DNA of 64,000 bases. It comes from Eledone cirrhosa (lineage: Eukaryota). The DNA lies in NCBI GenBank assembly GCA_964016885.1, contig OZ024754.1, forward strand, positions 9,176,001 through 9,240,000. The letters run 5' to 3'. Positions 12,347 through 12,525 of the stretch are shown here, in pieces. Position 1 is the stretch's first letter, and the number at the start of each line of letters is the position of its first letter. Position numbers and translations under genes: made by a program. The notes under the pieces are model-generated. The model saw nothing but the letters and a program-made list of their open reading frames with translations, was not told the DNA's origin and searched no databases.

Positions 12347-12418
12347 TGAGTTGAGATGGAGGGTCTGTGGTTTTTCTCACAGATGTGAGAAAAACCACAG
12401 ACCCTCCATCTCAACTCA

Positions 12419-12452
12419 CCTTTTGAAAAGCAGAAGCACTGCGAAACCGGTA
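12419..12452 (+). ncRNA. Family B hammerhead copy ending at the predicted cleavage triplet
   Basis: CCTTTTGAAAAGCAGAAGCACTGCGAAACCGGTA, after which the sequence jumps back to TGTGAGAAAAACC. The 3' strand of stem I is absent. Confidence 0.65.
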
Positions 12453-12487
12453 TGTGAGAAAAACCACAGACCCTCCATCTCAACTCA

Positions 12488-12525
12488 CCTTTTGAAAAGC
12501 AGAAGAACTGCGAAACCGGTAAAGG
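12488..12525 (+). ncRNA. Minimal type I hammerhead ribozyme (U3-A8 variant), family B
   Basis: CCTT(12488)-TTGAAAA(12492-98)-GCAG/CTGC-GAAA(12512-15)-CCGG-TA^AAGG. Predicted cleavage after 12521. Confidence 0.75.

Follow-up and report, generated by a model that had tools for sequence, protein, structure and literature searches.

The closest described relatives of the sequence reported here are the EN+ Penelope-like elements (PLEs), whose pLTRs carry minimal hammerhead ribozymes. In these elements, a single ORF combines a reverse transcriptase (RT) with a C-terminal GIY-YIG domain, copies are heavily 5'-truncated and inserted into microsatellites, head-to-head copies with palindromic junctions are formed, and thousands of solo motifs occur, with a U3/A8 core, a G10.1-C11.1 pair, and a palindromic loop 3 (PMC4209133; PMC8557442; PMC3846280). 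The family described below shares these properties; a mapping of internal duplications relative to the hammerhead cut is not known from these papers. In vitro, cleavage by PLE hammerheads is reported to be weak or protein-assisted, and to be unneeded for insertion (PMC4209133, PMC11167929). For D. virilis, an internal promoter that lacks a TATA box is described (PMC2377424); in the present family, a TATA box stands 30 nt above the 5'-end hotspot. The Poseidon PLE of Anolis (PAc) resembles this family in its two 3' ends (a "tail") downstream of the hammerhead, its AT-rich targets, the extension of both DNA strands, and insertion ends that lie away from the cut. It differs in that RNA ends at the cut were not found and cleavage proved unneeded, and the tail in the present family measures 66 nt; a junction like the one analyzed here is not known from it (PMC11167929).

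Other retroelements provide further points of comparison. The HDV-like ribozyme of R2 leaves a footprint in the genome that includes tandem duplications of cleavage-matched length; however, the cut sets the template 5' end in most R2 copies, whereas here a 3' end would act as jump acceptor at 3-4 loci of thousands (PMC3774820). The element belongs to a known kind, and ribozyme footprints at genomic junctions are already known from R2 (PMC3774820). Non-LTR retrozymes similarly consist of tandemly repeated units that stem from a PLE pLTR and contain a type I hammerhead core apiece, yet they hold a complete hammerhead across the unit boundary, while the 69-nt units described here lack the 3' strand of helix I (10.64898/2026.07.22.740005). 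Assignment to the non-LTR retrozymes was rejected, as consecutive units would need a complete hammerhead and those ending at the junction do not have one. The array is, moreover, embedded in a PLE insertion of the ordinary type. LINE-1 5' and inversion junctions are also joined through microhomology with short duplications or templated pieces, but twin priming inverts non-overlapping parts of the RNA, whereas the two arms in the present family are copies of one region, with the restart fixed at a single hotspot (PMC11702581). An incomplete literature search brought up no paper on PLE duplications that end at the hammerhead cut, and relevant data on junctions may be present in the supplements to PMC4209133 and PMC11167929.

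The window is a stretch of 64,000 nucleotides from Eledone cirrhosa (GCA_964016885.1, contig OZ024754.1, positions 9,176,001 to 9,240,000, forward strand), and element positions are counted from the predicted hammerhead cut (0), with the natural copy L009 as reference. The insertion lies head-to-head between two (TA)n target microsatellites read from the sequence (12194-12223 on the left, 12685-12720 on the right), and comprises a short inverted arm, an extra piece, and a long arm; the site is a 160-bp inverted repeat flanked by microsatellites. According to the segment map against L009, the short arm (12220-12381, minus strand) spans -69 to +80. The extra 5' copy (12380-12452, plus strand) begins in the 5'-end hotspot, at -73, and stops at the predicted cut, at 0; helix I lacks its 3' strand in this copy. 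The long arm (12453-12684, plus strand) extends from -69 to the 3' terminus of the element, which lies at about +146 in L009. A second family copy in the window (61124-61301, minus strand) consists of an arm from -70 to +80 and a 29-nt inverted stub; its palindromic center is perfect, and it carries no duplication. Elsewhere, the window contains tandem repeats of about 28 nt (9284-10844), 14/28 nt (30468-31240), 48 nt (35805-36284), and 53 nt (63190-63966), together with an uninterrupted 210-aa glutathione S-transferase ORF on the minus strand (53364-53996; Pfam GST_N E 1.5e-19), which, as a guess, may be zeta-class-like and of retrocopy origin.

The host element is Penelope-like, 5'-truncated, arranged head-to-head, and inserted in (TA)n. 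Its core pattern has 13,572 matches in the 3.0-Gb genome, and 5'-truncated head-to-head inverted copies of the EN+ PLE type are present. The window copy has no ORF; RT with a C-terminal GIY-YIG endonuclease was found in linked copies, and the ORF of L040 matched GIY-YIG (E 4.7e-07) and RVT_1 (E 1.4e-06, with 28.6 bits just below the cut-off of 29.6). Arm ends were sampled in the first 28 Mb of contig C1, giving 91 arm rows in which two arms were counted twice. The 3' ends lay at +146 in 40/91 rows and at +80 in 27/91, a difference that defines the 66-nt tail, and none of the 91 rows in this sample ended at the cut. The 5' ends clustered at -73 to -61 (12380-12392 in the window) in 53/91 rows, with a sharp upstream edge. 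A TATAAAA motif at -102 stands 30 nt above A(-72), in keeping with the familiar TATA-to-start spacing, and the hotspot is likely to be the start of the pLTR transcript; a cap-derived G at this position is indistinguishable from short duplications or from the base that is native there. At L002:190-385, a further palindromic repeat of head-to-head type was observed in (TA)n, which probably represents another Penelope-like family.

Two intact minimal type I hammerheads were recognized by a descriptor scan of the window, one in the inverted arm (12309-12346, minus strand, predicted cut after 12313) and one in the long arm (12488-12525, plus strand, predicted cut after 12521). The latter has a U3/A8 core, 4-bp helices I and II, a palindromic loop 3, and a G10.1-C11.1 pair, as in PMC4209133. 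Both motifs show the minimal type I features, including NUH, and each of 30 block shuffles gave 0 matches; the ribozyme assignment and the predicted cut position agree with the original proposal. Numbering follows the standard hammerhead scheme. The first copy does not match the descriptor, since other sequence stands in place of the 3' strand of its helix I. An Rfam scan of the window returned nothing at gathering thresholds, so the ribozyme call is based on this descriptor and on the published minimal PLE hammerhead. Helices I and II form in single-strand folds, but with z-scores of only -0.9 to -1.6 the folds were not counted as evidence. The 238 arms are too alike for covariation; a single subfamily change, affecting two bases at -35/-34 in 111-113/238 arms, disrupts helix I at its fourth pair and creates an adjacent pair. 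The subfamily with intact helix I accounts for 47/90 sampled arms. The fetched loci also contained two hammerhead motifs from another repeat family, in which the core is of the canonical C3/G8 type and the palindromic loop measures 2 nt.

The duplication within the right arm, with its restart next to the palindrome center, is as originally proposed. Two direct copies of 69 nt (12384-12452 and 12453-12521) are identical at 68/69 positions, and the sole mismatch is an A>C change in the first copy, a private substitution of the window. The first copy ends with the GTA of the hammerhead core, and the restart adjoins the inversion center. Since the native base preceding the restart is A, the microhomology at the junction (12452-12453, plus strand) is exactly 1 nt, and the junction coincides with the predicted scissile bond or precedes it by 1 nt, which agrees with the earlier placement within one base of the cut. 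The coincidence of the duplication end with the predicted cut is real.

The identical junction recurs elsewhere in the genome. The exact junction pattern has 8 matches at 3 loci. At C14:8.87 Mb, it is part of an 8-unit array with 7 junctions, all identical, and 7/8 units identical; the other two of the 3 loci, the window and C3:61.34 Mb, carry a single extra unit. BLAST found no match among the flanks of the three loci. The window and C3 copies carry the same subfamily markers, and the C14:8.87 Mb copy carries those of the other subfamily; two of the three loci lie on one contig, 316 kb apart. The partner arms at these loci are without the duplication, the inversion centers differ, and the duplication sits on the long arm at one locus and on the short arm at two.

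To survey duplications across the family, direct repeats of two 12-nt anchors were sought, and 84 loci were examined. The first anchor search gave 161 matches, with 151 in fetched loci, 3 in unrelated repeats, and 7 unaccounted for. Eleven of the 84 loci were left out, comprising five inversions or complex cases (L050, L055, L066, L073, L165), an unrelated repeat (L140), a likely assembly duplicate (L074), and four with a restart outside the hotspot (L051, L063, L162, L163). The 73 retained loci represent 57 distinct junctions, all with a restart at -78 to -59. The landings, at which the first copy ends, were distributed as 35 at -50 to -41, 8 at -40 to -31, 5 at -30 to -21, 11 at -20 to -11, 2 at -10 to -4, 10 at -3 to +4, and 2 at +5 to +62. 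Extra pieces that restart at the hotspot and end between -50 and +27, mostly short, are present at no fewer than 73 loci, and the anchor is blind to pieces ending before -50, of which at least 3 sampled arms show examples. Two loci were recoded by eye, L047 as -1 to +2 (ambiguous, and counted as touching the cut) and L065 as -3 to -1, and five -11 loci were recoded by exact match. Breakpoints spread at random along the element were named beforehand as the outcome that would speak against a ribozyme origin, and the result is mixed: the restart is pinned at the hotspot, and the other end is spread and mostly short.

Three loci touch the cut, or four with L047, and 69/73 duplications end elsewhere. 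All four cut-touching junctions belong to the intact-helix subfamily. Of the 10 near-cut landings, three extend beyond the cut, to +2, +3, and +4, and the landing at +4, which retains 4 native bases, likely needed an uncleaved template. Landing density falls from 0.3-1.25 per nt at -40 to +4 to 0.03 per nt at +5 to +62, with 2 landings past +4 against about 21 expected if the distribution were flat. This drop beyond +4, which sets in immediately after the 3' strand of helix I, is real, and smooth length decay does not predict it. A separate search yielded one more locus at about +31, read by eye and kept outside the statistics, together with head-to-tail joins at the element's true 3' end, and no direct landings between about +33 and +140. 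Duplications of 4 nt that end exactly at the predicted cut were seen at L075, L076, and L077; as 2-nt duplications also occur at the -5 control, at about 5 loci, these are probably slippage.

The excess of landings at the cut over chance is borderline. The null model combined the observed restart weights with a microhomology bias fitted to the data, and was applied to a test window of -40 to +4 picked after the data were seen. Landings at the cut numbered 4/36 by locus against 1.5 expected (p 0.06-0.07), and 2/28 by junction type against about 1.2 (p 0.3-0.34). Within 1 nt of the cut, the figures were 7/36 by locus against 3.0-3.2 expected (p 0.03-0.035), and 4/28 by junction type (p 0.2-0.23). 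When the test window is extended to +62, p is at most 0.005 by locus, which merely restates the cliff, since landings stop after +4. On the enrichment anticipated at the GTA position, the evidence is mixed: a weak excess by locus (p about 0.03), the threefold recurrence, and the cliff speak for it, while p of about 0.2 by junction, counts of 7 against 11 and 5 for breaks of all types, and the lack of an arm-end pile-up in the C1 sample speak against it.

Those break counts cover large breaks of any type, tallied by eye from complete listings: 7 at 0 (15 loci), 11 at -5 (62 rows), and 5 at +4 (9 loci). The patterns used miss breaks with a native third base, such as an inversion at 0 with 3 nt of microhomology. 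In the present sample, the cut is not a main breakpoint of the family. Among the first 70 of 349 head-to-head junctions, the 5' ends of short arms formed a flat distribution between -44 and +6; 2 of them lay at 0, and 14 at 0 to +4 against 8, 10, and 8 in three upstream 5-nt bins. Common 3' truncation at the cut was considered and rejected, for nearly all of the first 100 of 285 rows in which the base following the cut was changed were point substitutions; one truncation into (TA)n at the cut was found genome-wide. Templating of 5' ends by the 3' cleavage product was likewise dismissed, since an initial hint, 5/94 arms with 5' ends at -7 to +4, did not recur in 70 targeted loci.

Uniform arrays are also built on the junctions -41, -37, -28, -16, -11, -5, -1, +3, and +27. 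Satellite arrays of 54 nt derived from the same element were observed at L067-L070 (C25:9.29, 9.89, 14.18, and 14.61 Mb) and L059 (C6:32.39 Mb), in which the junction lies at -11, occurs up to 48 times, and shows imperfect microhomology over 7 nt. These would be small satellites born from PLE 5' stutters.

The duplication is read here, at about even probability, as a re-priming stutter during 5'-end joining of a Penelope-like insertion, in which the stop at the cut is incidental. Both target ends would prime cDNA, as PAc extends both strands (PMC11167929), and each cDNA would run to the RNA 5' end, that is, to the hotspot of a pLTR-initiated RNA. While the two cDNA ends are being joined, synthesis would abort and re-prime via 0-5 nt of microhomology; copying would restart at the cDNA end that marks the putative transcript start, with many stopping places, the cut being one of them. 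The enzyme could be the element RT, with either RNA or cDNA as its template, or an end-joining polymerase of the host, between which sequence cannot tell, and multi-unit arrays would likely be later expansions at the DNA level. The restart of the duplication is accounted for by the 5'-end hotspot common to most copies, and comparable re-priming via short microhomology is described for LINE-1, at 5' and inversion junctions (PMC11702581). In vitro, PLEs predominantly use RNA that is uncleaved (PMC11167929), and minimal PLE hammerheads cleave weakly (PMC4209133). Counting against the stutter are the excess within 1 nt of the cut by locus, the exact junction at three unrelated loci with 1 nt of microhomology, the cliff after +4, and the confinement of cut-touching junctions to the intact-helix subfamily. 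An origin at the stage of reverse transcription, as first proposed, is likely, whereas use of a self-cleaved end is not established, with 69/73 duplications ending elsewhere; the duplication is only possibly a trace of ribozyme cleavage.

Capture of a cleaved end, the main rival and a refinement of the original proposal, is a tentative and rather doubtful reading, according to which the hammerhead cuts the pLTR RNA, frees a 5' fragment of ~70 nt from start to cut, and the RT, once at the 5' end of one RNA, jumps onto the 3' end of this fragment via one T:A pair and copies it. The duplicated unit (-70/-69 to 0) equals the predicted start-to-cut fragment, the junction recurs at 3 loci in 2 subfamilies, 7/36 landings lie within 1 nt (p about 0.03 by locus), and the cliff follows +4; restriction of the four cut-touching junctions to the intact-helix subfamily is a weak further plus. 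For group II intron RT, end-to-end jumps work best with a single base pair at the acceptor's 3' end (10.1101/792986), and R2 RT performs serial jumps (PMC8594491). Yet a 3'-phosphate slows group II RT jumps (10.1101/792986), PAc mainly uses uncleaved RNA and is described without RNA ends at the cut (PMC11167929), and the in vitro weakness of minimal hammerheads applies here as well (PMC4209133). By distinct junction, the excess is not significant (p 0.2-0.3) and its test window was picked post hoc; three near-cut landings go beyond the cut, all-type breaks at 0 are not in excess, the fourth pair of helix I is broken in 111-113/238 arms, and cleavage of the motif is itself a prediction. Ligation of the cut 3' end to the hotspot 5' end into an RNA circle of 69-70 nt, followed by rolling-circle reverse transcription, would yield identical junctions and the 8-unit array. 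It would accord with the 7 identical junctions and 7/8 identical units at C14:8.87 Mb, with a joined form that cannot rebuild helix I and would thus likely be stable, and with the circular PLE RNAs proposed earlier (PMC4209133). This route is nevertheless very unlikely, for arrays equally uniform and longer exist on cut-unrelated junctions (48 junctions at -11) and 2/3 loci carry just one extra unit. A capped 5' end, moreover, is no substrate for ligation. The 8-unit array was accordingly rejected as proof of a rolling circle and, as arrays occur on many junctions, it does not favor cleavage. A single chance event followed by inheritance, in which a source copy was re-transposed or gene-converted and the three loci are not independent, is improbable: the window and C3 copies share subfamily markers and two loci lie 316 kb apart, but the C14:8.87 Mb copy belongs to the other subfamily, the partner arms lack the duplication, and the arm placement (1 long, 2 short) and inversion centers differ. 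An assembly artefact at the palindrome, the other objection foreseen at the outset, is extremely unlikely; a 160-bp inverted repeat between microsatellites would invite one, but the identical junction occurs at three loci with unrelated flanks, and the first copy in the window has its private substitution.

In vivo cleavage by PLE hammerheads, and its purpose, can be tested on the junctions of this family of more than 13,000 copies, in which two features stand out, namely a sharp 5' hotspot below a TATA that serves as the common restart, and a drop in landings beyond the ribozyme. Should the excess at the cut be upheld, it would provide in vivo evidence of cleavage; if not, the duplications are ordinary 5'-junction stutter. 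It is conceivable, though doubtful, that the minimal U3/A8 PLE hammerhead cleaves in the germline and that the element RT captures the freed start-to-cut fragment end-to-end. Were this capture true, the three-locus junction, the -1 junctions, and the cliff would constitute genomic evidence of in vivo activity of a U3/A8 PLE hammerhead, and would reveal a route that seeds tandem arrays containing the hammerhead core.
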